The position numbers and the translations under genes were made by a program. This document shows positions 9,448-54,564 of a stretch of 61,504 nucleotides of DNA, in pieces. The stretch lies in NCBI GenBank assembly GCA_035641235.1, contig DASQUP010000144.1, positions 1 through 61,504 of the forward strand, written 5' to 3'. Under the pieces are notes generated by a model that saw only the letters and a list, made by a program, of their open reading frames with translations, ran no database searches and had not been told where the DNA came from. Origin of the DNA: Actinomycetota bacterium (GTDB lineage: Bacteria > Actinomycetota > CADDZG01 > WHSQ01). Numbering within the stretch: the first letter of the stretch is position 1; each line of letters starts with the position of its first letter.

Positions 9448-10245
9448 CTATTGGAACTCGATGGTGCCCTTCATGCCGTCCGAGTGGGGGGTGCACTCGA
9501 AGTCATAGGTCCCCGGTGGTGCATCGAATGTGATGCGCTGGGCGCTGTTGCTCGGAATCTGAAGGTCGACTCCAAGCTCCTCGATCGTAAAGGTGTGCAG
9601 GGTCGTGTCCTTGTTCTCGACGAACACCGACACCTCGCCCGCCTCGGCAGTGATGTGTTCGTGGGAGAACTCGATGTCCTGGGTGACGATTTCGATATCT
9701 CCCGCCTGCACGACGGCGGACTCGTGGGTAACGCGGGCGGCCGCAGCCGTTGCAATGGAGAGCCCGATCAGGGCGAGGGCGGCGAATCCGAGAGTGCGGG
9801 CGGCCGGGGAAGGTCCCGACTCCTTCGTCCGAACCGCGGCCACGGCCGCGCTGAGGAGGACCACGAGAAAGACAAGAATGACGCTAGTCATGATGAAGTC
9901 TTCGGTCGAGGCCGGCACCCTGAGGCTTGGAACGATGAAGGGAAGGTTCAGTAGCAGCGTGAGCACCCCAACTACGCCGAGGAAGATTGCGCCCCCCTTC
10001 CGGCGCCGGCGAATGATCAGAGCTCCGATGACAAACGGCGCCGCGAATATGAGCAGAGGCGGGATGAACTCGCCGAACACCACCATGCCGCCGATCATCG
10101 CGGCGGCTACCCCCAGGGCGCTCCAGAACAGCAACTCCGTCCATCCGATCCCGGCCGCCCGAGCCGTTTCCGGTCCCGTCGGGCGGGCCTCCGTGGTCTG
10201 CATCTCGAACCTCCCGTTCATAGCGAGCTGGATGTCGAGAGCCAT
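9448..10245 (-). CDS. polytopic membrane protein with C-terminal cupredoxin (type-1 copper) domain
   Basis: About 5 N-terminal TM helices, then a cupredoxin domain with candidate ligands H (TLHTF) and C-x2-H-x3-M (ECTPHSDGM). Confidence 0.75.
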   Translation of the reverse strand: MALDIQLAMNGRFEMQTTEARPTGPETARAAGIGWTELLFWSALGVAAAMIGGMVVFGEFIPPLLIFAAPFVIGALIIRRRRKGGAIFLGVVGVLTLLLNLPFIVPSLRVPASTEDFIMTSVILVFLVVLLSAAVAAVRTKESGPSPAARTLGFAALALIGLSIATAAAARVTHESAVVQAGDIEIVTQDIEFSHEHITAEAGEVSVFVENKDTTLHTFTIEELGVDLQIPSNSAQRITFDAPPGTYDFECTPHSDGMKGTIEFQ

Positions 10246-28797: not shown

Positions 28798-29805
28798 CTA
28801 CAGGCTTCGCTCGTACTCGACGACGGCTCGTATCTGACTGTCGGTTAGCGGATACGGGGGCACAGGTATCCCCTGGGCCGGCGCTTCGGAAAAGGTAGGC
28901 ATGAACGCGAACCGACGTCCGTTGATGACGGTCAAGAGATGCTGGCTGCGCGGCAGGTGTCCCACTTTGCCCTGCCACAGCGCCATACCCTGGCGGTAGG
29001 GCTCTTCATCCTTCCCCTGACCCTCGGGACCGTGACACACGGCGCAGCGCGCTTCGAAGATCTCCTGACCGCACTGAAGTGTGTTCTCTCCGCCTATAGG
29101 ATCTGGATCCTGGCACTCCTCCGAGACCTCGGGGGCTTCAGAGTTCTCGGGCAGCGTCCGTAGCCAGTTCATAACGTCGTCGACCATCTGGTCGGTCATC
29201 GAGCCGCCGAACGCCACGCCCCACGCCGGCATGGGCGTCCCGGGGCGGCCGCGCTGAATGGTGAATCTGATGACCTCTTCGTCCCAGCGAGTGAACACGT
29301 TGTTTAGCGGGGGTGCGGCGTACTTCACGGCCTGTTCCGTGACGGGATCGAGGAAGTCGGGAGTCGCGTTCCCGCCGACCCCGTCCGCGCCATGGCAGTT
29401 GATGCACGCCTGCCCGAGAGCTATCTCCCGTTCGCGCTCCCGGAACAGAGCCGGGTCGGCGTCCTCTTCGAGTTGGGGTGGCACCGAATAGATCAGCTCA
29501 CCGCGCTCGACGGACTCCTCGTCGAAACGTTCCGCAAACGCTTCCTGGCGGTCGGCCTCCGGGAGCCAGTAGGCAGGTATGAACAGCGCCAGGGCAACGG
29601 TTGCGATTACGCCCCCAACTTGAACGCGCTGGAGTCTTCTCCCCTCCAGCTTCTCGTCGGTCTCGCCGGGCCGCAGCGCCCGCGGGATGCCGAGTTGCGC
29701 CGCCGGGCTCTTGGGTCTTGTTGTCGACCGAAGAAAGACCCCCCACAGAATGGCCGCACCGAGAATGAGAACGAGCGCGATGACGATGACATCGTTGGAC
29801 TGCAA
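28798..29805 (-). CDS. membrane-anchored dihaem cytochrome c (QcrC-like)
   Basis: Two CxxCH motifs (CINCH, CAVCH). N-terminal TM helices. Confidence 0.88.
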   Translation of the reverse strand: MQSNDVIVIALVLILGAAILWGVFLRSTTRPKSPAAQLGIPRALRPGETDEKLEGRRLQRVQVGGVIATVALALFIPAYWLPEADRQEAFAERFDEESVERGELIYSVPPQLEEDADPALFREREREIALGQACINCHGADGVGGNATPDFLDPVTEQAVKYAAPPLNNVFTRWDEEVIRFTIQRGRPGTPMPAWGVAFGGSMTDQMVDDVMNWLRTLPENSEAPEVSEECQDPDPIGGENTLQCGQEIFEARCAVCHGPEGQGKDEEPYRQGMALWQGKVGHLPRSQHLLTVINGRRFAFMPTFSEAPAQGIPVPPYPLTDSQIRAVVEYERSL

Positions 29806-29823
29806 CTCAGCCTCGCATTTCCA

Positions 29824-30642
29824 TTACGTCGGGACGCACAAGCCCCCCACCGGCTCGGAGAACCGGTCCCAAGTGTCTGTACCACGCGGCGGGCCCGTCT
29901 GGACGGCGCCGGTGTCGACGACCACCTTGCCGCCCTCGATGGCAACGGGAAAGCGGTCGAGCCCGCGCGGTGCGGGTCCGCCGAAGTACTCGCCGTTCAG
30001 CCGGTACTTCGAGCCGTGGCACGGGCACTCAAACAGCATCGAAGTCTCACAGTGCGGAACCGAGCAGCCCAGGTGCACACACTTCCGGTACAGGGCAAGA
30101 AGTTTGGTGTCTACTGCATTGACGGCCGTGTAGACGGGATCGTCTCCCGTGCCCTCGTAGAACGTAAGCCAGAAGCGCCCCTCCGCCACGAACTTGGGTT
30201 TGAATCCGTTGCCGGGGCCGACCTCGTCCAACAGGTCTTCGTAGTTGCCCGCGGTGATCGCGGTGCCGAAACCTCCGGTCAGCTTCGGCCACAGGAACGA
30301 AAGGCTGCTCATCCCAAAGAGCCCGAGGAAGGTCAGGAACGAGGCATTCCATGCACGATTGAGGAACTGGCGCCGAGAGACGGCCATCTGGTCGGGCGTC
30401 AGCGGTTTGCGTTGCTTCTCCGGCACCTTCTGAACGGTTACCTCGCGTGACCCGGCTGTTTCCTGAGTGGTTTGCGCCTGCATGGGTTCGGCCCCGGAGG
30501 TGTGCTCAACGGGGGGTGCGCCCTCCGGAGCGGCGGCAGCAGCCGCCTGCCGCTGCCTGCGGATGGTCACGTTGGCCATGAACAGTGCCCAGGCGGCGAC
30601 GCTCAACGCCACAACTATGAGTGCGATCGTGCCTGGACTCAC
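29824..30642 (-). CDS. qcrA: Rieske 2Fe-2S subunit
   Basis: CVHLGC...CPCHGS Rieske boxes. Internal twin-arginine motif SRRQFLNRAW ahead of the last TM. GTG start. Confidence 0.9.
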   Translation of the reverse strand: MSPGTIALIVVALSVAAWALFMANVTIRRQRQAAAAAAPEGAPPVEHTSGAEPMQAQTTQETAGSREVTVQKVPEKQRKPLTPDQMAVSRRQFLNRAWNASFLTFLGLFGMSSLSFLWPKLTGGFGTAITAGNYEDLLDEVGPGNGFKPKFVAEGRFWLTFYEGTGDDPVYTAVNAVDTKLLALYRKCVHLGCSVPHCETSMLFECPCHGSKYRLNGEYFGGPAPRGLDRFPVAIEGGKVVVDTGAVQTGPPRGTDTWDRFSEPVGGLCVPT

Positions 30643-30654
30643 TTCATTACCCCT

Positions 30655-31509
30655 TTACAACTCGAAGAAGATTCCGTCGTTCCACGGGAACGTGAAGTTG
30701 AACCCTGGTCCCCGGAAGAACATCCCGATGATGGTCAGCACAGCAAAAGTCAGCATGTAGAACGAGAAGATTACGATCGCCACCTTGCGGTCGTCCGGGC
30801 GAGTGGAGGGATTCCGGTCGATGTATGGCCACGCAAACATCGCAATGATGATCACCGTGGGGATCGTCACTCCTGCAACCTGCGGGTGCAGGTAACGCAA
30901 GAGCTCCTGAAGGCCGAGGAAGTACCACGGAGCCTTTGATGGGTTGGGAGTCTGGTTGAAGTTCGCGAGTTCGCGCAGTGGCGCATCGACGGCCGTGGAG
31001 AAGAAGGTCAACAATGCCATCACCACAAGCAGAGACACGAACTCGGCTGCCATTAGGTGTGGCCACACGTTGATGCGGTCCATCGGCTGGCGTTCAACCT
31101 TCTGGATGGCTTCAGGTTTGACGACAGCCAGAAGTCGCTGAACGCGTTCGGGAACGGCGGAGGCTCCGTTGCCGGCGGCCCGGCGGGCCGGCGCGCCGCT
31201 CCTGGGGGCTGCTGCGGGCTTGGATGCCGCCGGCTTGGCGGCGGCCGGAGCCTTGGCGGCAGGCGCTGCTGCCGGTGCCGCGGCGGCGGGCTGTTCGGCC
31301 GGTGTCTCAGCCGCCTCGGCGGGAGTCGCAGCCGCGGGTTCGGCTGCCGGCCTGCTCGCGGTCGACGGGTCGGGCACGTTTGGGGTCTTGGAGCCGCGTT
31401 CGGCCCGCACCCGTGCCGCCTTCGCTCGAGCCTGGGCGACGGCTGGGGAGGAGCCCTTGTCGGTCTCCTCCTTGAGTACCTGTTCGTAGACCTCGTCTGG
31501 AGTCGGCAT
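30655..31509 (-). CDS. cytochrome b C-terminal part (b6f subunit IV-like) with N-terminal conserved module and Ala/Pro-rich linker
   Basis: C-terminal 3-TM region with NPSKAPWYFLGLQELLR (position of the PEWY Qo motif). The N-terminal ~130 aa are a charged module plus an A/P/K-rich low-complexity tract. Confidence 0.8.
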   Translation of the reverse strand: MPTPDEVYEQVLKEETDKGSSPAVAQARAKAARVRAERGSKTPNVPDPSTASRPAAEPAAATPAEAAETPAEQPAAAAPAAAPAAKAPAAAKPAASKPAAAPRSGAPARRAAGNGASAVPERVQRLLAVVKPEAIQKVERQPMDRINVWPHLMAAEFVSLLVVMALLTFFSTAVDAPLRELANFNQTPNPSKAPWYFLGLQELLRYLHPQVAGVTIPTVIIIAMFAWPYIDRNPSTRPDDRKVAIVIFSFYMLTFAVLTIIGMFFRGPGFNFTFPWNDGIFFEL

Positions 31510-31531
31510 AGTCGTAGTCCTCAGTCCGCCC

Positions 31532-32305
31532 CTATATGGGGCCCGAGATGCCTCCGTCCTTTCTCACTCGCCAGAAGTGAATCGAAATGAAGATCACGAT
31601 GAGGAACGGCAAGAACAACACGTGCAGTGTGTACCACCTGATCAGTGTTTCAGGGCCGATCACGGGTCCGCCCAAGAGAGCGAACTGGACCTGATCACCG
31701 ATCACAGGTGAGTTCTTCATCATCTCCGTCCCGACGGTGACCGCCCATACTGCGAGTTGGTCCCACGGCAGCAGGTAGCCCGTAAAGGCCAGCAGCAGCG
31801 TCAACAAGAGAAGGACGACGCCGACGATCCAGTTGAACTCGCGCGGTGGTTTGTAGGCGCCGGTGTAGAAGACCCGGGCCATGTGCAGGAATACCGTTAT
31901 CACCATGAGGTGGGCACCCCACCGATGCAGGTTGCGGACGAGAAGTCCGAACGACACCTGCGTATTAAGTCCCTGCATGTCCGAGTAAACGAGATCCACC
32001 GACGGCCGGTAGAAGAACATCAGGTAGATACCTGTGATCGTCAACAGAATGAACAGGAAGAAGGTAAGTCCACCGAGGCACAACGTGTAGGAAAGCTTGA
32101 CTCCGTGCCGCTTCACCTTCACCGGATGAAGGTGGTAAAGCACCGAGTTCATTACTACGTATGCGCGGTTCCGGGGAGAGTCCGCATACCCCCGCCGAAA
32201 GATAGAACCCGGCCGGAACATAGAGCGCCAGAGCTGGCTTCCGTGGAGCTGATCGAGGCGCTCGCCTACCTTTTCTCTCGGATTCCACCCGGACTCGTTG
32301 GCCAC
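31532..32305 (-). CDS. qcrB: cytochrome b6-type subunit (N-terminal 4-TM cytochrome b)
   Basis: Haem-ligand pairs H-x13-H (HRWGAHLMVITVFLH) and H-x14-H (HVLFLPFLIVIFISIH). YTLCLGG retains the b6/Firmicute haem-ci Cys. GTG at 32305 has GGAGGG 10 nt upstream (ORF track 31532..32407). Confidence 0.88.
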   Translation of the reverse strand: MANESGWNPREKVGERLDQLHGSQLWRSMFRPGSIFRRGYADSPRNRAYVVMNSVLYHLHPVKVKRHGVKLSYTLCLGGLTFFLFILLTITGIYLMFFYRPSVDLVYSDMQGLNTQVSFGLLVRNLHRWGAHLMVITVFLHMARVFYTGAYKPPREFNWIVGVVLLLLTLLLAFTGYLLPWDQLAVWAVTVGTEMMKNSPVIGDQVQFALLGGPVIGPETLIRWYTLHVLFLPFLIVIFISIHFWRVRKDGGISGPI

Positions 32306-32321
32306 TCCGGTCTTTCCCTCC

Positions 32322-32744
32322 CTAGGATGCCTTCTGGGACTCGGGCACAGTTCCCATAGCCCGGGCTCCGCGCTTCTTTTTTCCACCTGCCACCTGGCTC
32401 TGCACAAGAGCGCCTGTGGGGCACCGCTCCACGCAGAGGTTGCAGCGGGTGCATGCGTTGTCGTCGATCAGGAACAGGATGTCGCTGGGATCCATCATCC
32501 CGGCAAGAGCCACGTTGCCGGACTCCGCCACGGCTTCGGGATCCACCATGTGGATGCAGTACCACGGGCAGATGTCTACGCACCCCTCGCAAAGGATGCA
32601 CTGCTCGGGGATGAAATCGATGAAGTTCTTGGGTTTGACGGCGCCCTTGAGCCACTCGTCGTCGACGAGTTGCATCTCGTAGTCGATCCGGAAGATGGGC
32701 TTCTGGATCGTTTCCATTTTGCGCGGCTCTGGTGGTTTGGGCAT
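32322..32744 (-). CDS. 2x[4Fe-4S] ferredoxin-domain protein, soluble
   Basis: CILCEGCVDICP and CTRCNLCVERCP cluster motifs. No TM helix or signal peptide. The stop lies 16 nt before the cyt b6 start. Confidence 0.85.
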   Translation of the reverse strand: MPKPPEPRKMETIQKPIFRIDYEMQLVDDEWLKGAVKPKNFIDFIPEQCILCEGCVDICPWYCIHMVDPEAVAESGNVALAGMMDPSDILFLIDDNACTRCNLCVERCPTGALVQSQVAGGKKKRGARAMGTVPESQKAS

Positions 32745-41261: not shown

Positions 41262-41840
41262 CTATTCGAGGACGTACAAGGTCACGAACAAAAAGATCCA
41301 GACGACGTCCACGAAATGCCAGTAGTACGAGACGGCTTCCGCCGTTCCATGTCTGGCAGCCGAGATTCGGCCCCCTCGAGCCGAGGCGTACACCACTCCG
41401 ATTGCCACTAGACCTCCGGCGACATGGAGTCCATGGAAGCCGGTCATCGTGAAAAACAGAGTGGCGAACTGGTTCGTGGAGATGACGAAGTCCTCGCCGA
41501 CGAGTTCTGAGTACTCCCAAGCCTGTCCACCGAGGAAGACCAACCCGAGAGTGATGGTGATCACCAGCCATCTCATCGTCCCGGCGACGTCGTCAGTTCG
41601 TAGGACGGTCACCGCCCGCTGGATTGTGAACGACGAGGCTATGAGAAAGAGAGAGAAGAAGCCGGTGCGCAGTACGGCTATCTCGGCCGTCCCCGGCGGA
41701 GGCCATGGGTCGGTGGCTGCCCGAATCGTGAAGTAGGCGCCGAACAAGCTGCCGAAGAACATCAGTTCTGAGGCGATGAACAGCATCATGCCGAGGAGGG
41801 CGCCCGGAATGCGGCGTTCTCGAACTCCCTGGACGGCCAT
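41262..41840 (-). CDS. haem-copper oxidase subunit III paralog
   Basis: FFGSLFGAYF, TGFHGLHVAGG and YYWHFVDVVW motifs. 192 aa. Confidence 0.88.
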   Translation of the reverse strand: MAVQGVRERRIPGALLGMMLFIASELMFFGSLFGAYFTIRAATDPWPPPGTAEIAVLRTGFFSLFLIASSFTIQRAVTVLRTDDVAGTMRWLVITITLGLVFLGGQAWEYSELVGEDFVISTNQFATLFFTMTGFHGLHVAGGLVAIGVVYASARGGRISAARHGTAEAVSYYWHFVDVVWIFLFVTLYVLE

Positions 41841-42409
41841 TACCCCGATCCCGCCTCGTTCAGCAGACCCTCGATCCTCGCCAGCAGTTCCTCCTCCGAG
41901 ATCTCACCGAGCACCGGATCACCGCTGAGACGACCGTTCGCGTCCATAAAGAAGGTCTGTGGCAGCGGGTCTACGTTGAGCTGCCCGGCCAGCTCCGCTT
42001 CGGGGTCTCTCAAGATGTCGTAGGTGATCTCGTATTCCTCTACGAATTCCTTCGCAGTGACCTCCGCGTCCTTGACATCGATCCCGACGATCGTCAGCTC
42101 GTCGGAGAAGCGCCGATGCATTCGCTCGAACAGCGGCATCTCCCTGCGGCACGGGATACACCACGAAGCCCAGAAATTCAGGATCGCGGGGCGACCGCTG
42201 AGATCGCTACGTGCGACCGTTCCGGGGGCGTCCAGACGAGGCAACTCGAACTCCACGAGACGGCCCGGTGCCGTCGCACTGTCTGGAGCAGGGCGCACGA
42301 GCCCGAATACGACGACGCCGATCAAGAAGGCTGCTGCAACCAACGCGGGAATCAGCCGGCGGGACTTTGAGCGTTTGTGAGCGCCTTCCACCTCGTCCCA
42401 AGGCACCAT
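41840..42409 (-). CDS. TlpA/CcmG/ResA-like thiol:disulfide oxidoreductase
   Basis: ATG at 42409 (MVPWDEV...) with TM anchor. FWASWCIPCRRE. The ORF track start at 42568 is unlikely. Confidence 0.85.
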   Translation of the reverse strand: MVPWDEVEGAHKRSKSRRLIPALVAAAFLIGVVVFGLVRPAPDSATAPGRLVEFELPRLDAPGTVARSDLSGRPAILNFWASWCIPCRREMPLFERMHRRFSDELTIVGIDVKDAEVTAKEFVEEYEITYDILRDPEAELAGQLNVDPLPQTFFMDANGRLSGDPVLGEISEEELLARIEGLLNEAGSG

Positions 42410-42483
42410 ATCGAGCAGGCTACCGGCCTTCGTTCCTTTATGCTGACGGCGTCGAAGCCAAGTTCGAACGGAACAAGGACTGG

Positions 42484-43533
42484 ATGGGAACTCCCGGAAA
42501 AGGCAGGTCTCGCATTCTGTTCGGCCTCGTACTGGCGACGTTTGCCTTGCTGGTCGCCGCGTGCGCACCCGACGCGCCGCAAGACGTGTTGAAGCCCGAA
42601 GGGCTCGGCGCCCGCGAGGCCGATCGCCTGTGGGACATCGTCTTCCCCATCGCCGCCGTGATCTTCTTTGTCGTCGAAGGAGTTCTTATCTATGCCGTCG
42701 TGAAGTACCGGCATAAGCCGGGGCGCGAGGCGAAGCAGTTCCACGGCAACACAAAGATCGAAGTCGCGCTTACCGCCATACCAGCTCTGATTCTGGCCGG
42801 CATCGCGGTTCCCACGGTGCGGACGATCTTCGACCTGGCGGAGGAACGGCCGGGATCGATGCAGGTGACGGTCATCGCCCATCAGTTCTGGTGGGAGTAC
42901 AGGTATCCGGAGCTCGGCATCACCACTGCCAATGAATTGCACATTCCCGTCGGGCAGCCCGTACGAGTGAGGCTCGAGGGCCAGGTGCGAGACCCCGTTG
43001 ATGGGACAGAGGAAGTCATCCACAGCTTCTGGGTGCCGCGCCTGATGGGAGCTCAGGATGTGGTTCCAGGGCGCGCCGAGTTTCAACTTCTTCAGGCCGA
43101 CCGTCCGGGTGAGTACTTAGGAGAGTGCAAGGAGTACTGCGGCCTCTCCCACGCCAACATGCGGCTGCGGGTCATCGCGCAACCTCAGGAAGAGTTCGAC
43201 GCGTGGGTCGAGGACATGCAAACGACCGAGGAACACGACGGTGGTCTCGACGGGGCCGATCTTTTCGTGAACGGAGCCGACAACATAGGCCAGCCGTGTT
43301 CGGCGTGCCACTCGGTTGAAGCCTCCCAGGAACAGCCGAGCCTCGGACCCAACCTGGGCGGGTTTTCCGAACGCGGCATGTTCGCGGGAGCCATCTTCGA
43401 GAACAATGAGGAGAATCTCCGCGCGTGGCTCCGGAACCCGCCCGGCGTGAAGCCCGGCGCCAAGATGCCGAACCTCAACCTCACATCGGACCAGATAGAC
43501 GCGCTGATCGAATACCTGCAATCGTTGGAATGA
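42484..43533 (+). CDS. ctaC: cytochrome c oxidase subunit II with fused cytochrome c domain (caa3-type)
   Basis: ATG at 42484. Lipobox LLVAAC. CuA site HSFWVP...CKEYCGLSHANM. C-terminal CSACH haem c motif. Confidence 0.92.
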   Translation: MGTPGKGRSRILFGLVLATFALLVAACAPDAPQDVLKPEGLGAREADRLWDIVFPIAAVIFFVVEGVLIYAVVKYRHKPGREAKQFHGNTKIEVALTAIPALILAGIAVPTVRTIFDLAEERPGSMQVTVIAHQFWWEYRYPELGITTANELHIPVGQPVRVRLEGQVRDPVDGTEEVIHSFWVPRLMGAQDVVPGRAEFQLLQADRPGEYLGECKEYCGLSHANMRLRVIAQPQEEFDAWVEDMQTTEEHDGGLDGADLFVNGADNIGQPCSACHSVEASQEQPSLGPNLGGFSERGMFAGAIFENNEENLRAWLRNPPGVKPGAKMPNLNLTSDQIDALIEYLQSLE

Positions 43534-43564
43534 TGGACGGACTCAGAGCTGGGGGAGTGAAGTC

Positions 43565-45435
<1,871 letters not shown>

Positions 45436-45439
<4 letters not shown>

Positions 45440-46047
45440 GCTCTCAGCACGCGGCGGCGCACGCCCCTCCCGAACACCACACGAGTACAGGGCTCGACAA
45501 CGTCAAGCTGGCGATGTGGGCCTTCCTGGGCTCGGAGTGCCTGTTCTTCGGCTCACTCATCTCGACGTACCTCTTGTATCGCAACCGTGTCCTGGATGGA
45601 CCGAAGCCACAAGAGATCTACGACATCCCGTATACGTCCGTCAGTTCGTTCGTGCTGCTCATGTCGTCCGTGACGATGGTCCTTGCACTCGCCGCCATCC
45701 AACGGGGCGATCACCGCGGGTTGCGCATATGGCTGCTGGCGACGGCGATGCTCGGCTCGGTCTTCATCGGCGGGCAGATCTACGAGTTCACGACTTTCGT
45801 CGACGAAGGTCTCAAGCTCTCCACGAGCACCTTCGGCAGCGCGTTCTTCGTGATGACCGGATTCCACGGTGCGCACGTGACGGTTGGAATCTTCATGTTG
45901 TTGTCTCTCGTCGGAATGTCGATGTTCGGGAGGCTGTCGGACCCCGACGGCCCTCGAAAGGTGGAATTGATCGGCCTCTACTGGCACTTCGTGGACATCG
46001 TTTGGATCGTCATCTTCACCGTCGTGTACCTGATCCCCACCAACTAG
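45436..46047 (+). CDS. ctaE: cytochrome c oxidase subunit III
   Basis: ORF 45403..46047. TTG at 45436 overlaps the ctaD TGA. FFGSLISTY, TGFHGAHV and YWHFVDIVW motifs. Confidence 0.88.
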
Positions 46048-46059
46048 CGGAGTGAACAA

Positions 46060-46410
46060 ATGACCCAGGCAGGCGTCGAACATGCTCCCAGAGAGGAAGG
46101 CGAACTCGCCCATCACCCCGAGCCGCGGCAGTACGTGGTGGTTGGGGTCTGGCTGGCGATCGTCACGGCACTCGAGGTCGCCATCTACTACATCGACAGC
46201 ATGCGCGACATCATCGTGCCGTTCCTATTGGTGTTCGCGTTCATTAAGTTCTTTCTGGTTGCGACCTGGTTCATGCATCTCAAGTTCGACAGCCCACTAT
46301 TTCGCAGGCTGTTCGTCAGTGGCCTCGTCCTCGCTCTTGCCATCTTCGCCATCGTGTTGACCGTGTTCCTTGCGCGCGGCGGCGCGGTGCCTGAGATCGC
46401 AGGCGGATGA
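46060..46410 (+). CDS. ctaF: cytochrome c oxidase subunit IV (bacterial CtaF/COX4_pro type)
   Basis: 116 aa, 3 TM, FIKFFLVATWFMHLKFD motif. Confidence 0.85.
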   Translation: MTQAGVEHAPREEGELAHHPEPRQYVVVGVWLAIVTALEVAIYYIDSMRDIIVPFLLVFAFIKFFLVATWFMHLKFDSPLFRRLFVSGLVLALAIFAIVLTVFLARGGAVPEIAGG

Positions 46411-47276
46411 TTTCCGCAGCGCAAGAGGCAACCGCTGTGCTCGTGTGGCACCCGCACCCTGACGTGTGGCTGCTCGTTGTGGGGCTGCTTGTCGGCTATG
46501 TGTGGGCCGTCACCGTCCTGGGCCCGCGTCGGGCCGCCCCCGGCAAACCCATCGCAACGACCGGACAGAAGGTGTCGTTTCTGCTCGGAGTAATCGCCCT
46601 GTTGATCGCGGAGGACTGGCCGCTCCACGAGCTTGCGGAGGACTACTGGTTCTCAGCGCACATGGTCCAGCACCTGATGTTCGCGTTTGTGATTCCGCCG
46701 CTGTTGCTGCTCGGCACGCCTACATGGCTGCTGAGAGGTCTGTTGGGGAAGGGGGCCCGTTTCAAGGCCTTCCGAGTTCTGACCCGGCCCTTGATCGCCC
46801 TCGTTCTGTTCAACGGCGCAGTGGTCGCCATGCACTGGCCGTTGGTGGTCGACCTCCAATCGAACAGCGCGGTGTTCCACCTCGCATTTCACTCATTCCT
46901 CTTGGGCGCCGCGCTGGTCATGTGGTCGGTTGTGGTGTCGCCGCTTCCGGAGCTCAATCGACTTTCGGAGCCGGCGAAGATGCTCTACTTGTTCCTCCAG
47001 TCCGTCGTTCCCACGGTCCCCGCATCGTTTCTTACGTTTGCCGATCGGCCCCTGTATTCGTTCTACGAGTCGGCGCCTCGGCTGTGGGGCCTGTCGGCAG
47101 GAACCGATCAGATGATGGCGGGGCTGCTCATGAAGCTCGGTGGCGGTTTGCTACTGTGGTCCGTCATCGCGGTGATGTTCTTTAGATGGAGCGCAAAAGA
47201 AGACGCTGACGTTGGACACGAAGTCGGTTGGGATGACTTCGAGCGTGAACTCGAAGTCTGGGATATGAGGAAGTGA
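46407..47276 (+). CDS. ctaG: cytochrome c oxidase assembly factor CtaG (Bacillus Caa3_CtaG type), paralog 1
   Basis: HMVQHLMFAFVIPPLLLLGTP motif. Polytopic. ATGA overlap with ctaF. Confidence 0.85.
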   Translation: MISAAQEATAVLVWHPHPDVWLLVVGLLVGYVWAVTVLGPRRAAPGKPIATTGQKVSFLLGVIALLIAEDWPLHELAEDYWFSAHMVQHLMFAFVIPPLLLLGTPTWLLRGLLGKGARFKAFRVLTRPLIALVLFNGAVVAMHWPLVVDLQSNSAVFHLAFHSFLLGAALVMWSVVVSPLPELNRLSEPAKMLYLFLQSVVPTVPASFLTFADRPLYSFYESAPRLWGLSAGTDQMMAGLLMKLGGGLLLWSVIAVMFFRWSAKEDADVGHEVGWDDFERELEVWDMRK

Positions 47277-47941
47277 TGAGCCAGCAAGATCCGATGCTGG
47301 GAGAGGTACGTTTCAGGGTCCCGCTCCCGGTTCTGATTCCGGTCACGGCGGTCGTGGTCATCGTTCTGTTGACCTTCGGCTTTTCGCGTGTGCTGCTTGC
47401 ACTCCCTGCGGAGGCCGCTACGGCCGTCGCCACGGTGACTGCCTTGAACATCCTCGGCGCCTGCGCCGTGCTGGCCTCACGACCAAACATCTCACGCAAT
47501 GGGATGGTTGAGCTGGCCGTCGTCGTGATCTATCCCGTGATCATCGGCATCGCGATCGCACAACTGGGTATCGGGGCGGAGGAGCACGCGGAAGCAGCGC
47601 CGCCAGCGGCCGAGGAGGGAGCGCCGGCAGGTGACTCGGGCGGCCCGGTTGCCAGCGGGGGGACTATGGTCGCGGAGGACGTTCAGTTCGCGTCCGACAC
47701 CATTGAGTTAACTGCCGGGGAAGATGTCTCGATCACCTTCGACAACCGCGATGAACTCCAGCACAACGTCGCGATCTATGCAGACGAGGCCGATGCCGAC
47801 GCGCAGGAGAACCCCATCTTCCAGGGGGAGATCATCACCGGGACGACCGTCACCTACGAATTCACGGCCCCGGACGCGGGGGAGTACGTATTCCAGTGTG
47901 ACGTGCATCCCGCGATGGGCGGCACCGTAGTTGTGGAGTAG
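47273..47941 (+). CDS. membrane-anchored cupredoxin (type-1 Cu, amicyanin-like loop)
   Basis: 3 N-terminal TM helices, an A/E/G linker, then a cupredoxin with H (LQHNVAIY) and C-x2-H-x2-M (QCDVHPAM). Confidence 0.8.
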   Translation: MMSQQDPMLGEVRFRVPLPVLIPVTAVVVIVLLTFGFSRVLLALPAEAATAVATVTALNILGACAVLASRPNISRNGMVELAVVVIYPVIIGIAIAQLGIGAEEHAEAAPPAAEEGAPAGDSGGPVASGGTMVAEDVQFASDTIELTAGEDVSITFDNRDELQHNVAIYADEADADAQENPIFQGEIITGTTVTYEFTAPDAGEYVFQCDVHPAMGGTVVVE

Positions 47942-47979: not shown

Positions 47980-48825
47980 TTGATTCTGGCGCACGGTCCG
48001 GCTCCAGATCCCGGTATCTGGTTCCTCCAATGGGCCTTTGAACCGCTCGTCTGGGGCGCTGGTGCCGCCTCAGCGTGGTGGTACATACGAGCGGCGCGCC
48101 GGGTACATGGATGGTCTGTGTGGCGCAGCCGCAGCTACATCGCTGGGATCGGGGTGGCTGTGTTCGCGTTGTCCGGTCCACCGGCGGTTTTTGACACAGC
48201 GCTCTTCTGGGTCCACATGGTGCAGCACCTGCTCCTGGTGATGCTCGCCGCTCCGCTGTTATTGCTCGGCGCGCCGGTGACGCTGGCGCTGCGATCCGGT
48301 TCGGATCGGCTGCGGCGGAGGCTGCGCGCCCTTATAGAGATGCCTCCCATAAAGTTCTTCGGGCAGCCGGTAGTCGCATGGATGTTGATGGCGGCCGTCG
48401 TGGTTCTCACCCACTTCTCGGCCATCTACAACGCGGCACTCGAGAACGAACTCGTACACATCGGCGAACATGCTCTGTACATCTCCGCAGCCCTCCTGTT
48501 CTGGTGGCCGGTGGTGGGGTTGGATCCAGGGTCATCACGCCTGGCACGGCCCGTGCGTGTGGTGTACGTGGCTCTCACGATGCCCGTCCAGGCATTTGTA
48601 GGACTGGCTTTGTATTCCGCGGACCGAGTTCTTTACGAGCACTACTCCACGCTCCAGCGGTCGTGGGGGCCTGCTCCTCTGGCGGATCAGCAGCTCGCCG
48701 GCGTTGTGATGTGGGTTGGTGGCGAGCTCCTTGCGGGGGCGGCGCTGGCCGCCGTAGTAGTCGCCTGGATGCGCGAAGAAGATCGGCTCGCCGCCAAAGA
48801 GGATCGCCGCCTGGGGCTCACCTAG
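47980..48825 (+). CDS. CtaG-type oxidase assembly factor, paralog 2
   Basis: HMVQHLLLVMLAAPLLLLGAP motif. Polytopic. Confidence 0.82.
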   Translation: MILAHGPAPDPGIWFLQWAFEPLVWGAGAASAWWYIRAARRVHGWSVWRSRSYIAGIGVAVFALSGPPAVFDTALFWVHMVQHLLLVMLAAPLLLLGAPVTLALRSGSDRLRRRLRALIEMPPIKFFGQPVVAWMLMAAVVVLTHFSAIYNAALENELVHIGEHALYISAALLFWWPVVGLDPGSSRLARPVRVVYVALTMPVQAFVGLALYSADRVLYEHYSTLQRSWGPAPLADQQLAGVVMWVGGELLAGAALAAVVVAWMREEDRLAAKEDRRLGLT

Positions 48826-49026
48826 CTCTCCGTCGACGACCTTCGACCGACGCATTCGCCTACTTCTCAATAGTTCCTTGCCCCTGGCTGGAATCTTCAG
48901 GATTGCCCAGACGGCGTGCATATGCGTAACTTGTACCGGAGTGCTGATCCGCCGGGCCGGCGAACGGTTCAGCGTTTTGCCGGCCGGGTGGATGCGGGTT
49001 TACCGGTATGGCTCGAGGAGGTCCCG

Positions 49027-50193
49027 ATGGCCCAGACGAGTGCCTTTGATCCCGTCACCCAGGATGACATCCGCGACCTCCTTGCCCCTCGATCGGCTCC
49101 GGCGGTATCGATCTATCAGCCATCGCATCGCGCCGGGCCCGAGGCGGAACAGAACATCCTTCGCTACAAAAACCTGCTCTCCGATGCTGAGGCGAAGCTC
49201 TCTCAACAGGGCGTGGGCAATTCTGAAACGGGGGGGATCCTTCGCCCTGCGCGTGCACTCCTGGATCGGTCCGAGTTCTGGCGGCATCAACTTGACGGCC
49301 TTGCGGTATTTGCGGCTCCGGAGTTCTTTCGCGTGCTGAAGCTCCCACATGAGGCCGAGGAGCTTGTTGTCGTCGGCGAAACCCTGCATGTCACCCCCTT
49401 GCTTCCCGCGATGACCCAAGGGCACTTTTACATCCTTGCGGTGAGCATGGACTCGCTTCGCCTTATGCGCGCCACGCCTCACAGCATCGAGGAGGTTGAC
49501 ATCACCGACGTACCGAGAAGTCTGGCTGAGGCAACTCGCTACGACGACTACCAGAAGAAGAACCTGCAACGCCATCCCACATCGCGGGCCGGTGTGGGCG
49601 GCCGCACCATGCAGCATGGTCATGGGCCGGGTGACGAAGACCTCAAAGAGGAGATCAAGCGGTACTTCCAGGCCGCCGACGCCGGAGTCTGCCGAATGTT
49701 GACTACGGACGGCGCGCCGCTAGTCGTTGCGGCCGTCGACTATCTGATCACGATGTACCGGCATGTGACCGACTACCGGAACGTCGTGAACAAGGGCATC
49801 GAGGGGAATCCCGACCAACTGTCGCCGCGGCAATTGCTCGAACGCGCCCGCCCGATCGTTGATCCGATCTTTCGTGAGCCCCTCCTCAAGGCCAAAGACA
49901 AGTACGGCCGAGGTGAGGGTGTCGGACTCGCATCCTGTGCCCTACTCGACGTGGTGCGTGGCGCACACGCTGGAAGGGTGGAAAGCCTCATGGTGGCAAA
50001 AGGTGAGCGCCGCTGGGGGGCCTACGTTGCGGACGCCGACGCACTCGAGGTCCATGACGACCCGTCGCCGGGAGACGGGGACTTACTCGATCTCGCAACA
50101 CGCCAGAGCCTTCTTCACGGCGGATCCGTCTACCTCGTGGAGCGCGACGAGATGCCCTGTGCGGAGCCAATCGCAGCGGTGTTTCGCTACTGA
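49027..50193 (+). CDS. bacterial eRF1-like (baeRF-family) protein
   Basis: ATG at 49027 preceded by GAGGAGG. The features VSIYQPSHRAGPEAEQNILRYKNLL, HFYILAVSMDSLRL, HGHGPGDEDLKEEIKRYF, GNPDQLSPRQL and the C-terminal IAAVFRY match my recollection of baeRF3-type proteins. Needs HMM confirmation. Confidence 0.45.
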   Translation: MAQTSAFDPVTQDDIRDLLAPRSAPAVSIYQPSHRAGPEAEQNILRYKNLLSDAEAKLSQQGVGNSETGGILRPARALLDRSEFWRHQLDGLAVFAAPEFFRVLKLPHEAEELVVVGETLHVTPLLPAMTQGHFYILAVSMDSLRLMRATPHSIEEVDITDVPRSLAEATRYDDYQKKNLQRHPTSRAGVGGRTMQHGHGPGDEDLKEEIKRYFQAADAGVCRMLTTDGAPLVVAAVDYLITMYRHVTDYRNVVNKGIEGNPDQLSPRQLLERARPIVDPIFREPLLKAKDKYGRGEGVGLASCALLDVVRGAHAGRVESLMVAKGERRWGAYVADADALEVHDDPSPGDGDLLDLATRQSLLHGGSVYLVERDEMPCAEPIAAVFRY

Positions 50194-53478: not shown

Positions 53479-54564
53479 TTGGATCCAGAGCAGATCTATC
53501 AGGAAGTGCTACAGGAAGAGCAGGGCAAGGGAAGCAGCTCGCCGGTCGCCGAGGGCCGCGCCAAGGCGGCGCGCCAGAGGGCCATCGAGGGGTCACCCCA
53601 TCCGAAGGAGCCGAAGTGGTGGCCTGGGTCCCAGCCGCAGTTCGAGGGCGGTGAGGCAGCGGCGCCGGCCGAGGCCCCCGCCGAAGAGGTAGTGGAGGCC
53701 GCTCCGGCGGCCGAGGAAGCTCCGGCCGAGGCTCCCGCTCCCGCCGCCGAGGCTCCCGCTCCCGCTGCCGAGGCACCGGCTCCCGCCGCCGAAGCACCCG
53801 CGGCGGAAGCACCCGCGGCGGAAGCACCCGCGGCGGCTGCACCCGCGGCGGCTGCGCCCGCCGAGGCCCCCGCCCCGGCGGCTCCTGCGGAGCAACCAGC
53901 TGAGGCCGCTCCGGCTGCTGCTGCTACGGTTCCTCCCGCCGAGACGGTTGGGGTGTCTCCGGGACAGCCCGGGGGAACGCGGCTCCGACCCGAGGACGCT
54001 GTGACACCGCAGGCGCAGTTCGACGGCCAGGCCGCGATGCGGGAGCGCCGCAAGATGATCGACGAGTTGGTGGCCACCGGCGTGCCGGCCGTAACGGCGG
54101 CCCGGGCCGGGCGAGAGCGGTCGCCGATGCTGTCGGTGCTGCTCCTTATCGTTCCGCTCGTCGCCGTTCTGATCCTTGTTGCGCAGTACGGGGACGGGGA
54201 GACTTCCGCAGGAGGCGGCGGAGGCGGCGGCGGTGAGAACGGCGAAGGCGGCGGTGGAGGCGGTGGTGGAGGCGGTGGTGGCCTCACCGTCACGGCAAGC
54301 AACGTTCAGTTCGACACCGACCGGATCGAGCTGACCGCCGGCGAGGAGACGGCCATCGAGTTCGTCAACGACGACCAGCTCGTGCACAACATCGCGATCT
54401 ATCCCGACCAGGCAGCGGCGGACAGCCAGAGCGATGCGCTCTTCGACGGCGAGGACATCACCGGGACGACGGTCACCTATCAAGTGCCGGCAATTGAGGC
54501 GGGCGAGTATCCGTTCCAGTGCGACACGCACCCGGCAATGAACGGCACGACGGTAGTGCAGTAG
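53479..54564 (+). CDS. membrane-anchored cupredoxin with N-terminal conserved module, Ala/Pro/Glu repeat linker and poly-Gly linker
   Basis: TTG start. The N-terminal 40 aa are homologous to the subunit IV N-terminus. EAPAPAA/EAPAA tandem repeats, one TM, a G-rich tract, then a cupredoxin with H (LVHNIAIY) and C-x2-H-x2-M (QCDTHPAM). Confidence 0.8.
   Translation: MDPEQIYQEVLQEEQGKGSSSPVAEGRAKAARQRAIEGSPHPKEPKWWPGSQPQFEGGEAAAPAEAPAEEVVEAAPAAEEAPAEAPAPAAEAPAPAAEAPAPAAEAPAAEAPAAEAPAAAAPAAAAPAEAPAPAAPAEQPAEAAPAAAATVPPAETVGVSPGQPGGTRLRPEDAVTPQAQFDGQAAMRERRKMIDELVATGVPAVTAARAGRERSPMLSVLLLIVPLVAVLILVAQYGDGETSAGGGGGGGGENGEGGGGGGGGGGGGLTVTASNVQFDTDRIELTAGEETAIEFVNDDQLVHNIAIYPDQAAADSQSDALFDGEDITGTTVTYQVPAIEAGEYPFQCDTHPAMNGTTVVQ
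53728..53850 (+). repeat. in-frame tandem repeats (3 x 21 nt, then 4 x 15 nt) encoding EAPAPAA / EAPAA
   Basis: gaggctcccgctcccgccgcc x3 (53728-53790), then gaagcacccgcggcg x3 plus gctgcacccgcggcg (53791-53850). Confidence 0.85.

Follow-up and report, generated by a model that had tools for sequence, protein, structure and literature searches.

We have analysed a 61,504-nt stretch of DNA (contig DASQUP010000144.1 of assembly GCA_035641235.1, the whole of which is hereafter called the window) from a bacterium of the Actinomycetota, and focus here on cup1 (47276..47941, + strand), a gene for a membrane-anchored cupredoxin that lies within an operon for a caa3-type cytochrome oxidase. The genes follow each other in the order coxII, coxI, coxIII, coxIV, Caa3_CtaG, cup1, Caa3_CtaG. 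The structural genes of the oxidase (42211..46410, + strand) are recognised by the Pfam families COX2, COX2_TM and Cytochrom_C for coxII, COX1 for coxI, COX3 for coxIII and COX4_pro for coxIV; the true start of coxII is probably later than 42211, and its product combines the CuA motif CKEYCGLSHANM with a fused haem c site, CSACH. Directly upstream of cup1 lies the gene for a Caa3_CtaG assembly factor, ctaG-1 (46407..47276, + strand; PF09678, E-value 7e-48), and downstream of it a second Caa3_CtaG paralogue, ctaG-2 (47980..48825, + strand; PF09678, 4.8e-70). An initial annotation of the window had described a cupredoxin gene sitting between two CtaG-type genes in the caa3 operon, and the Pfam matches bear out this gene order.

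The same annotation had cup1 start at the GTG at 47273, which is in frame and 3 nt upstream of the ATG at 47276. We regard the ATG as the likelier start, because the methionine that it encodes (M2, counting from the GTG) is kept in 90% of homologues, because the homologues are 220–221 amino acids long, and because the ATG overlaps the stop codon of ctaG-1 (TGATG) and is preceded, 5 nt upstream, by a GAGG. With this overlap, cup1 appears to be translationally coupled to ctaG-1.

Architecture of the cup1 protein

The open reading frame of cup1 encodes a 221-amino-acid protein in which a flexible linker joins a three-helix membrane module to a type-1 cupredoxin head. It matches the Pfam families PF00127 (1.7e-9) and PF13473 (1.5e-9), scoring 38.2 and 38.4 bits where the gathering cut-offs are 27 and 21.2 bits. 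Judging from hydropathy and charge distribution, the protein has three transmembrane helices in an N-in/C-out orientation, with the head outside the cell.

The membrane module (residues 10–100, 47300..47572, + strand) was delimited from alignments and from an AlphaFold2 (AF2) model, which places helices at residues 18–43, 46–69 and 75–98 with a predicted local distance difference test score (pLDDT) of about 90; the mean pLDDT of the whole protein is 86. In the set of 115 homologues the module is the most conserved part of the protein, with a mean pairwise identity of 62% compared with 47% for the head and 29% for the linker. Residues P17, L18, P23, I30, L41, L42, N59, A65, E80, Y87 and P88 are invariant in alignments of homologues, and the second helix carries an Ala-x3-Ala packing motif. 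The module had no match in Pfam, NCBIfam, a PDB profile search or Foldseek, and hhalign ruled out a relationship to COX4_pro or CtaF (probability below 1%). We built a profile for it as a proposed new family, A2, which features R13, P17-L18, P23, L41-L42, N59, E80 and Y87-P88 and which the window protein matches at 2.3e-44.

The module is followed by an acidic linker rich in Ala, Pro, Glu and Gly (residues 101–130, 47573..47662, + strand), which is predicted to be disordered (pLDDT below 50 for residues 103–122) and varies in length from 18 to 47 residues across homologues. In the model, it would tether the head at the outer face of the membrane.

The head itself (residues 131–222, 47663..47938, + strand) carries the ligands H164 (codon at 47762–47764), C209 (47897–47899), H212 (47906–47908) and M215 (47915–47917) in the sequence HNVAIY...FQCDVHPAMGG, with an amicyanin-type loop C-x2-H-P-x-M. 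All four ligands are present in 114 of the 115 aligned homologues, the sole exception being a truncated sequence: H164 and C209 are invariant, H212 and M215 are 99% conserved, and N158 and D160, which precede the first ligand histidine, are invariant as well. AF2 models the head with high confidence (pLDDT about 96) as a Greek-key beta-sandwich of seven or eight strands. In a Foldseek search against the PDB only the head was matched, best by auracyanin (6kol, 1.2e-8) and amicyanin (1id2, 2e-8), and with a probability of 1.00 to auracyanin, amicyanin and plastocyanin. In good agreement with this, the PDB sequence matches of the head are plastocyanin and amicyanin at 22–29% identity, and its ligands align with those of amicyanin. 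By ligand set and fold, the head is thus a putative type-1 copper site that would be expected to bind copper.

None of the named cupredoxin families that we compared accommodates cup1. The amicyanin equivalog TIGR02657 gives 30.4 bits against a cut-off of 110, and the neighbours of cup1 are cox and ctaG genes rather than the methylamine dehydrogenase (mau) genes. The plastocyanin equivalog TIGR02656 gives 30.6 bits against a cut-off of 87.85; the database label 'plastocyanin' (JGI) is a generic name here. The sulfocyanin family SoxE (PF06525) has no match at E ≤ 0.01 in cup1 or in the two other cupredoxins of the window, cup2 and cup3, and matches just a few distant homologues, weakly and below threshold. 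Likewise, cup1 has neither a Pfam match to PCuAC (PF04314) nor its H(M)X10MX21HXM motif. AcoP was absent among the PDB sequence matches and the top 50 Foldseek matches of cup1, whose ligand loop is short (C-x2-H-x2-M).

Relatives, fusions and a second copy of the head

A search space of 5.8 billion proteins yielded more than 200 full-length relatives of cup1, all of them encoded in metagenome bins of Actinomycetota and carrying the label 'plastocyanin' or 'cupredoxin domain-containing protein'. Within a sample of 41 genomes of the family and class to which the window belongs (its own and 40 relatives), the cup1 protein was matched in every one, and by a full-length-type match in 40. In 39 of 40 cases the gene immediately before the cup1 orthologue, on the same strand, encodes a Caa3_CtaG protein; the second, downstream ctaG is found in only 8 of the 40 relatives. 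It is thus the ctaG-cup1 pair that is the conserved feature, and the position between two ctaG genes had to be rejected as the defining context. On three long contigs the complete order coxII-I-III-IV-ctaG-cup1 is kept at 46–53% protein identity. Note that in one genome (G024, C3:2201501-2202116) the match of the Caa3_CtaG profile to the ctaG before the cup1 orthologue is split into two parts that lie in different frames, because of a frameshift or of an error in the assembly. In another genome (G020), what looked like a module-only gene proved to be an artefact of a contig end.

The module is spread far more widely. Profile A2, which covers the module alone, was matched in 132 of 401 genomes drawn evenly across Actinomycetota (in 120 of them at E ≤ 1e-6) and by 512 representative clusters among 1.84 billion proteins. 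In all 19 loci from other families that we inspected, the module gene lies inside an A-type cox operon, where it takes one of two positions. It may follow coxIV or ctaG, in which case it encodes one, two or three type-1 heads; ctaG can be missing between coxIV and the module gene, as at locus L033. Alternatively, in what we call type-B loci, it lies just upstream of coxII and behind a divergent coxI'/coxIII' pair, and its product is headless or has a C-terminal domain without copper ligands. Variants that lack the head or the ligands include those at L034, L065 and L067. The constants of the family are therefore the module and the cox operon, while the number of copper heads varies from zero to three. 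The three-headed extreme is a 443-amino-acid protein with the module and three tandem type-1 domains, encoded directly after ctaG (L068:6594-7925, + strand).

In a long-form branch of the family, the module is found at residues ~130–220, behind a CtaF-like N-terminal domain. This domain matches solved structures of oxidase subunit IV over nearly its full length (8hcr_H, 3.8e-7; 7q21_F, 1e-6; 9wcx_m, 2.6e-6; 6adq_H, 1.1e-5), the CtaF proteins of Mycobacterium and Corynebacterium supercomplexes. Pfam Cyt_c_ox_IV weakly matches 8 of the 20 long-form members, and the Cupredoxin_1 head is kept in 16 of the 20. The long-form proteins thus link a structural subunit of the oxidase covalently to the unit of module and head.

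The head, in turn, has relatives that are fused to CoxII. A second CoxII of 348 amino acids, encoded in one of the sampled genomes (L069:316-1362, - strand, continued in L070), has a normal CuA site and no CxxCH, and ends in a type-1 head (FQCDVHGPAM) that occupies the place of the cytochrome c in caa3 CoxII; coxI and then a subunit III gene follow. This fused head matches a profile of cup1 heads at 1.4e-21 and is 31% identical to the head encoded in the window. Proteins that combine COX2 with Cupredoxin_1 and lack CxxCH form at least 255 clusters, all of which are annotated merely as 'cytochrome c oxidase subunit II'. Taken together, the CtaF and CoxII fusions suggest that heads of this kind act where electrons enter the oxidase.

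The window itself encodes a second head of the same kind. The product of cup2 (53479..54564, + strand), a gene located between those for a polyprenyl synthase and for the reductase and nuo proteins, is composed of a cytoplasmic N-terminal tag, an Ala/Pro/Glu-rich linker, one transmembrane helix (54127-54183, + strand), a poly-Gly tether and a type-1 head (54286-54561, + strand) with ligands H303, C348, H351 and M354 (HNIAIY...FQCDTHPAMNG, spacing C-x2-H-x2-M). The tag (~53479-53613, + strand) is shared with a subunit of the bc complex: the ~40 residues at the start of cup2 are similar to the N-terminal end of bc subunit IV (PDEVYEQVLKEE..KGSS...AKAAR), the product of 30655-31509. In at least 15 genomes of the family of the window cup2 is found on the same contig as cup1; in the sister families the cup1 orthologue has two heads instead. 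The initial annotation had called the domains of cup1 and cup2 near-identical, which overstates the likeness, since the heads share only 60% identity in protein and 70% in DNA. The head of cup2 is nevertheless the closest paralogue of that of cup1.

We followed the history of the two heads with a maximum-likelihood tree of 43 heads. In this tree, the cup1 head and the cup2 head group together in three genomes, with strong support (100/99 in G017 and G022, 99/89 in G011), and the DNA identity between the two genes, which reaches 89% in G017, is confined to the head-coding part. The heads of cup1 and cup2 thus evolve in concert within genomes, most simply by gene conversion, and we take this as a sign that they are functionally equivalent. 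The pairing of same-genome heads also led us to reject the idea that cup2 is orthologous to the second head of the two-head proteins. In the window and at the locus pairs L021/L054, L019/L053 and L022/L052, the two genes lie 6–19 kb apart.

Electron entry, copper delivery or shuttling

Blue-copper proteins that feed oxidases are textbook knowledge for archaea (sulfocyanin and halocyanin), Chloroflexi (auracyanin) and acidophilic iron oxidisers (rusticyanin and AcoP); actinobacterial respiration is modelled on the bcc-aa3 supercomplex of Mycobacterium and Corynebacterium, which lacks a copper carrier. Both sulfocyanin, as part of SoxM, and halocyanin feed terminal oxidases (PMC3062577, PMC4122944). 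Sulfocyanin (SoxE) of the Sulfolobus acidocaldarius SoxM supercomplex is, like cup1, a membrane-anchored blue-copper protein encoded with a terminal oxidase, and within SoxM it carries electrons to the oxidase from the part analogous to bc (PMC3062577). It differs in that it is archaeal and has another kind of anchor, and in that the oxidase of cup1 keeps a fused cytochrome c. With sulfocyanin, cup1 shares the location in an oxidase operon and the membrane anchor, and it is the fusions in its relatives that hint at membership of the oxidase complex. AcoP of Acidithiobacillus is, similarly to cup1, a single-domain cupredoxin with an N-terminal membrane segment encoded in a cox cluster; it is tightly bound to an aa3 oxidase and possibly has a role in electron transfer (PMC4059628). 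However, AcoP crosses the membrane with one helix, its copper site is green, its ligand loop is unusually long and it has an extra 'region 2'; it is also confined to acidophiles. By contrast, cup1 has the three-helix module and a short, amicyanin-type loop.

Amicyanin of Paracoccus, the closest solved head by sequence (24–29% identity), has the C-x2-H-P-x-M loop, an N-R-E/D...H-N motif and the fold in common with cup1, but is a soluble periplasmic protein that serves methylamine dehydrogenase and has neither membrane module nor cox context. The auracyanins of Chloroflexus and Roseiflexus are membrane-tethered type-1 carriers too, and belong to a respiratory chain that is poor in cytochrome c; they are anchored by a lipid or a single helix and have a longer, azurin-like ligand loop. 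Auracyanin genes are not known to lie inside cox operons. The cytochrome c domain of caa3 CoxII and the cupredoxin of the CoxII fusions are built-in, tethered one-electron donors to CuA, as we propose for cup1, whose head differs in being placed on a separate polypeptide with its own module and in existing alongside a cytochrome c fusion. CtaF, subunit IV of the actinobacterial aa3 oxidase (6adq, 7q21, 8hcr), is fused ahead of the module in the long-form branch, and cup1 has no CtaF-like part. Finally, PCuAC and CopC share a cupredoxin-like fold, and their genes lie close to cox or ctaG/copD genes (PMC9145763), while cup1 has a classical type-1 redox site instead. Membrane cupredoxins associated with oxidases are thus already known; what sets this family apart is that its three-helix module is conserved, that the number of heads varies, that it has relatives fused with CtaF or CoxII, and that a second tethered copy evolves in concert with it. 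We found no description of this three-helix cupredoxin family of cox operons in the literature that we searched on cupredoxins with CtaG, with CtaF or in deep actinobacterial classes.

We consider it probable that cup1 is an accessory blue-copper electron-entry subunit of the caa3-type oxidase, analogous to sulfocyanin or AcoP. It has the look of an oxidase subunit because its anchor is a specific, conserved module that always accompanies cox genes and that is fused to CtaF in one branch. The three-helix module would dock to the oxidase and pack against it, and the flexible linker of about 30 residues would hold the copper head at the outer membrane face, where the head would take single electrons from an upstream donor and pass them to the cytochrome c/CuA entry site. 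The donor may be a tethered cupredoxin such as cup2 or the dihaem cytochrome c of the bc complex, a Rieske/cytochrome b6-type complex encoded at 28798..32407 (- strand) and recognised by Pfam and by motifs, among them two CxxCH and the Qo motif APWY. We infer the physical association of cup1 with the oxidase, its partners and the direction of electron flow from sequence. The initial annotation had left three options for the cupredoxins: alternative shuttles of the halocyanin or sulfocyanin type, a branch to another acceptor, or delivery of copper to CuA. Electron transfer in the manner of sulfocyanin agrees best with the invariant type-1 ligands, the amicyanin- and auracyanin-like head and the homologous heads that are fused to CoxII in the place of cytochrome c; copper delivery agrees with them less well, and for a branch to another acceptor we found no evidence in the genome, where the sole NirK-like match, a weak one, is a two-domain multicopper oxidase and was ruled out as such a branch. 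This 332-amino-acid protein (L062:4679-6330, contig C47 of the genome) is encoded directly downstream of a DtxR/IdeR-type repressor with a FeoA domain. If cup1 is indeed an oxidase subunit, it represents a new class of accessory subunits and gives caa3 oxidases a second route by which electrons can enter. About a third of the sampled Actinomycetota genomes, from deep-branching and mostly uncultured soil lineages, have this copper-protein family genetically wired into an A-type oxidase operon.

Several observations weigh against this assignment. With one cytochrome c fused to the oxidase and a dihaem one in the bc complex, it is not obvious why an extra entry point should be needed; both cytochromes had been pointed out by the initial annotation, and the motifs (CSACH in the former, two CxxCH in the latter) confirm them. 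The headless and ligand-less variants imply a role of the module that is independent of the copper head and could lie in assembly; cup1 is located at the assembly-factor end of the operon, apparently coupled to CtaG; and Sco and PCuAC are absent from the lineage, which leaves the assembly of CuA unexplained. Moreover, the placement of cup1 in the oxidase is drawn from its sequence and genomic context.

Some of these observations can be read as pointing to a copper-handling partner of CtaG, the module working with Caa3_CtaG and the head receiving or delivering copper for CuA (or CuB) in place of Sco or PCuAC. Besides the apparent translational coupling and the adjacency to ctaG in 39 of 40 relatives, this is consistent with the presence of headless variants, which argue for a head-independent role of the module, and with the survey of copper chaperones: among 13 genomes of the class, 12 lack Sco (PF02630) and all lack PCuAC (PF04314), with control genomes positive, and a copper donor in cup1 would explain how CuA is built without them. 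A CuA-containing oxidase is present in all 13 surveyed genomes (that of the window and 12 relatives). Further parallels are that cupredoxin-like CopC works with CopD, that CtiP of C. glutamicum has a Caa3_CtaG domain (PMC9145763) and that AcoP reactivates a destabilised oxidase in vitro (PMC4059628). We nevertheless regard a role in copper delivery as unlikely. The canonical, buried type-1 H/C/H/M site, kept in 114 of 115 homologues, is unlike the exposed Met/His motif of PCuAC or a CopC-type site, and type-1 sites are not known to donate copper. It is with cox, not with ctaG, that the module is linked, as seen in the type-B modules upstream of coxII and at L033; the same head is carried by cup2, which is not beside any assembly gene; and heads fused to CoxII at the cytochrome c position, as well as two- and three-head forms, suit a redox relay better.

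Nor do we find it easy to see in the cupredoxins a set of general, interchangeable carriers of the halocyanin or auracyanin type, tethered to the membrane but not bound to the oxidase, whose lateral diffusion would connect the bc complex with oxidases and with other redox enzymes, the operon position of cup1 reflecting co-regulation only. Such shuttles would fit a genome with at least nine cupredoxins, four of them lipoproteins; long disordered tethers suit a roaming head, auracyanin is the best structural match, and the likeness that is maintained between cup1 and cup2 heads suggests common partners. What makes this doubtful is the module, since a mere anchor should not exceed the head in conservation, keep the polar residues N59, E80 and Y87 inside its helices, be fused to CtaF or stay in cox operons across classes (19 of 19 loci). 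More improbable still, to the point that we give it very little weight, is a lithotrophic entry point akin to rusticyanin, where an extracytoplasmic oxidation (of a metal, nitrite or similar) would supply the cupredoxins with electrons, which they would split between the oxidase downhill and a reversed bc complex uphill. The rus operon of A. ferrooxidans does join cox and cupredoxin genes (PMC8239418, PMC4059628), the cytoplasmic tag of cup2 is common to bc subunit IV, and APWY-type Qo motifs, found in complexes that are uncharacterised, have been associated with reverse bc operation by Kao and Hunte, but this is still a proposal without experimental test (PMC4122944). Against such an entry point, we found no candidate primary donor oxidase near the genes, the sole extra copper enzyme seen being the two-domain multicopper oxidase elsewhere in the genome, and the window has genes for complex I and for functions of an ordinary heterotroph.

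A broader version of the electron-entry role, which we put forward as speculative and on balance improbable, is that a tethered copper relay replaces soluble cytochrome c in these Actinomycetota, with heads hopping electrons by self-exchange from the bc complex to CuA. The same head would then hang on three leashes: cup1 as an integral subunit of the oxidase, cup2 on a long tether, and the CoxII fusion in sister lineages. The interface for self-exchange would be preserved by gene conversion, which would stop the heads within a genome from drifting apart.

Other cupredoxins and respiratory genes

Three cupredoxin genes had been reported in the window, and all three open reading frames are open and pass the gathering cut-offs of the Pfam models Cupredoxin_1 and Copper-bind, at E-values between 1.5e-9 and 2e-15. 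Their products are membrane-tethered, as had been claimed, with 3, 1 and ~5 transmembrane helices for cup1, cup2 and cup3, all N-in/C-out by hydropathy and charge distribution. All three carry type-1 copper ligands, and the C-x2-H-x2-M spacing that had been described for cup1 and cup2 is confirmed. The further statement that the genes are embedded in the respiratory cluster holds for cup1 and cup2 and fails for cup3 (9448..10245, - strand), which has about five transmembrane helices and a cupredoxin head with the loop CTPHSDGM (C-x2-H-x3-M). The neighbours of cup3 are non-respiratory: a CvpA/trypsin-type protease, a short-chain dehydrogenase/reductase, a histone-deacetylase-family protein, an aldehyde dehydrogenase and proline-metabolism genes. 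A cupredoxin phylogeny had been suggested for placing the domains; in our tree of 43 heads those of cup1 and cup2 fall together and that of cup3 falls in a different clade.

Three is, moreover, not the full count of cupredoxins. The 3.0-Mb metagenome-assembled genome to which the window belongs is 93% complete and encodes at least nine cupredoxin proteins, including four lipoproteins, a further cup2-like paralogue and another multi-helix form. This last protein (L008, contig C212) and cup3, with heads that are 44% identical, make up a second and unrelated kind of cupredoxin with a multi-helix anchor. Heads of the cup3 type group with those of the four lipoprotein cupredoxins of the genome, and the context of this type is not respiratory. 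A fourth close paralogue (L003, contig C251) lies outside any respiratory context.

The respiratory genes of the window extend to both sides of the caa3 operon. Upstream of the cox genes lie a ccm cluster and the Rieske/b6-type complex with its dihaem cytochrome c, whose split cytochrome b (30655-31509, - strand) has the APWY motif at residue 193. After ctaG-2 come a baeRF-family gene, ctaB, ctaA, the polyprenyl synthase gene, cup2, a geranylgeranyl-reductase-like gene and nuoA-F. A scan for promoters gave no promoter-like sites, and the terminator-like sites were weak and mostly inside genes. The baeRF (bacterial eRF1-like) gene, at 48916-50193 (+ strand) between ctaG-2 and ctaB, is not at the same position in two relatives (L010 and L011).

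Next to the operon, on the opposite strand, there is an orphan second gene for subunit III (COX3b, 41262..41840, - strand). It resembles the subunit III encoded beside the CoxII-cupredoxin fusion oxidase of another family, with 45% identity to the one that follows the fusion in genome G166, and may either be left over from a second oxidase or work with one. In type-B loci, too, a divergent coxI'/coxIII' pair lies ahead of the module gene. COX3b and a gene for a TlpA-like redoxin (41840-42568) are separate, adjoining genes in the window; at the locus of a relative (L009:1934-3091, - strand), the redoxin and the second subunit III are called as one fusion protein of 385 amino acids.

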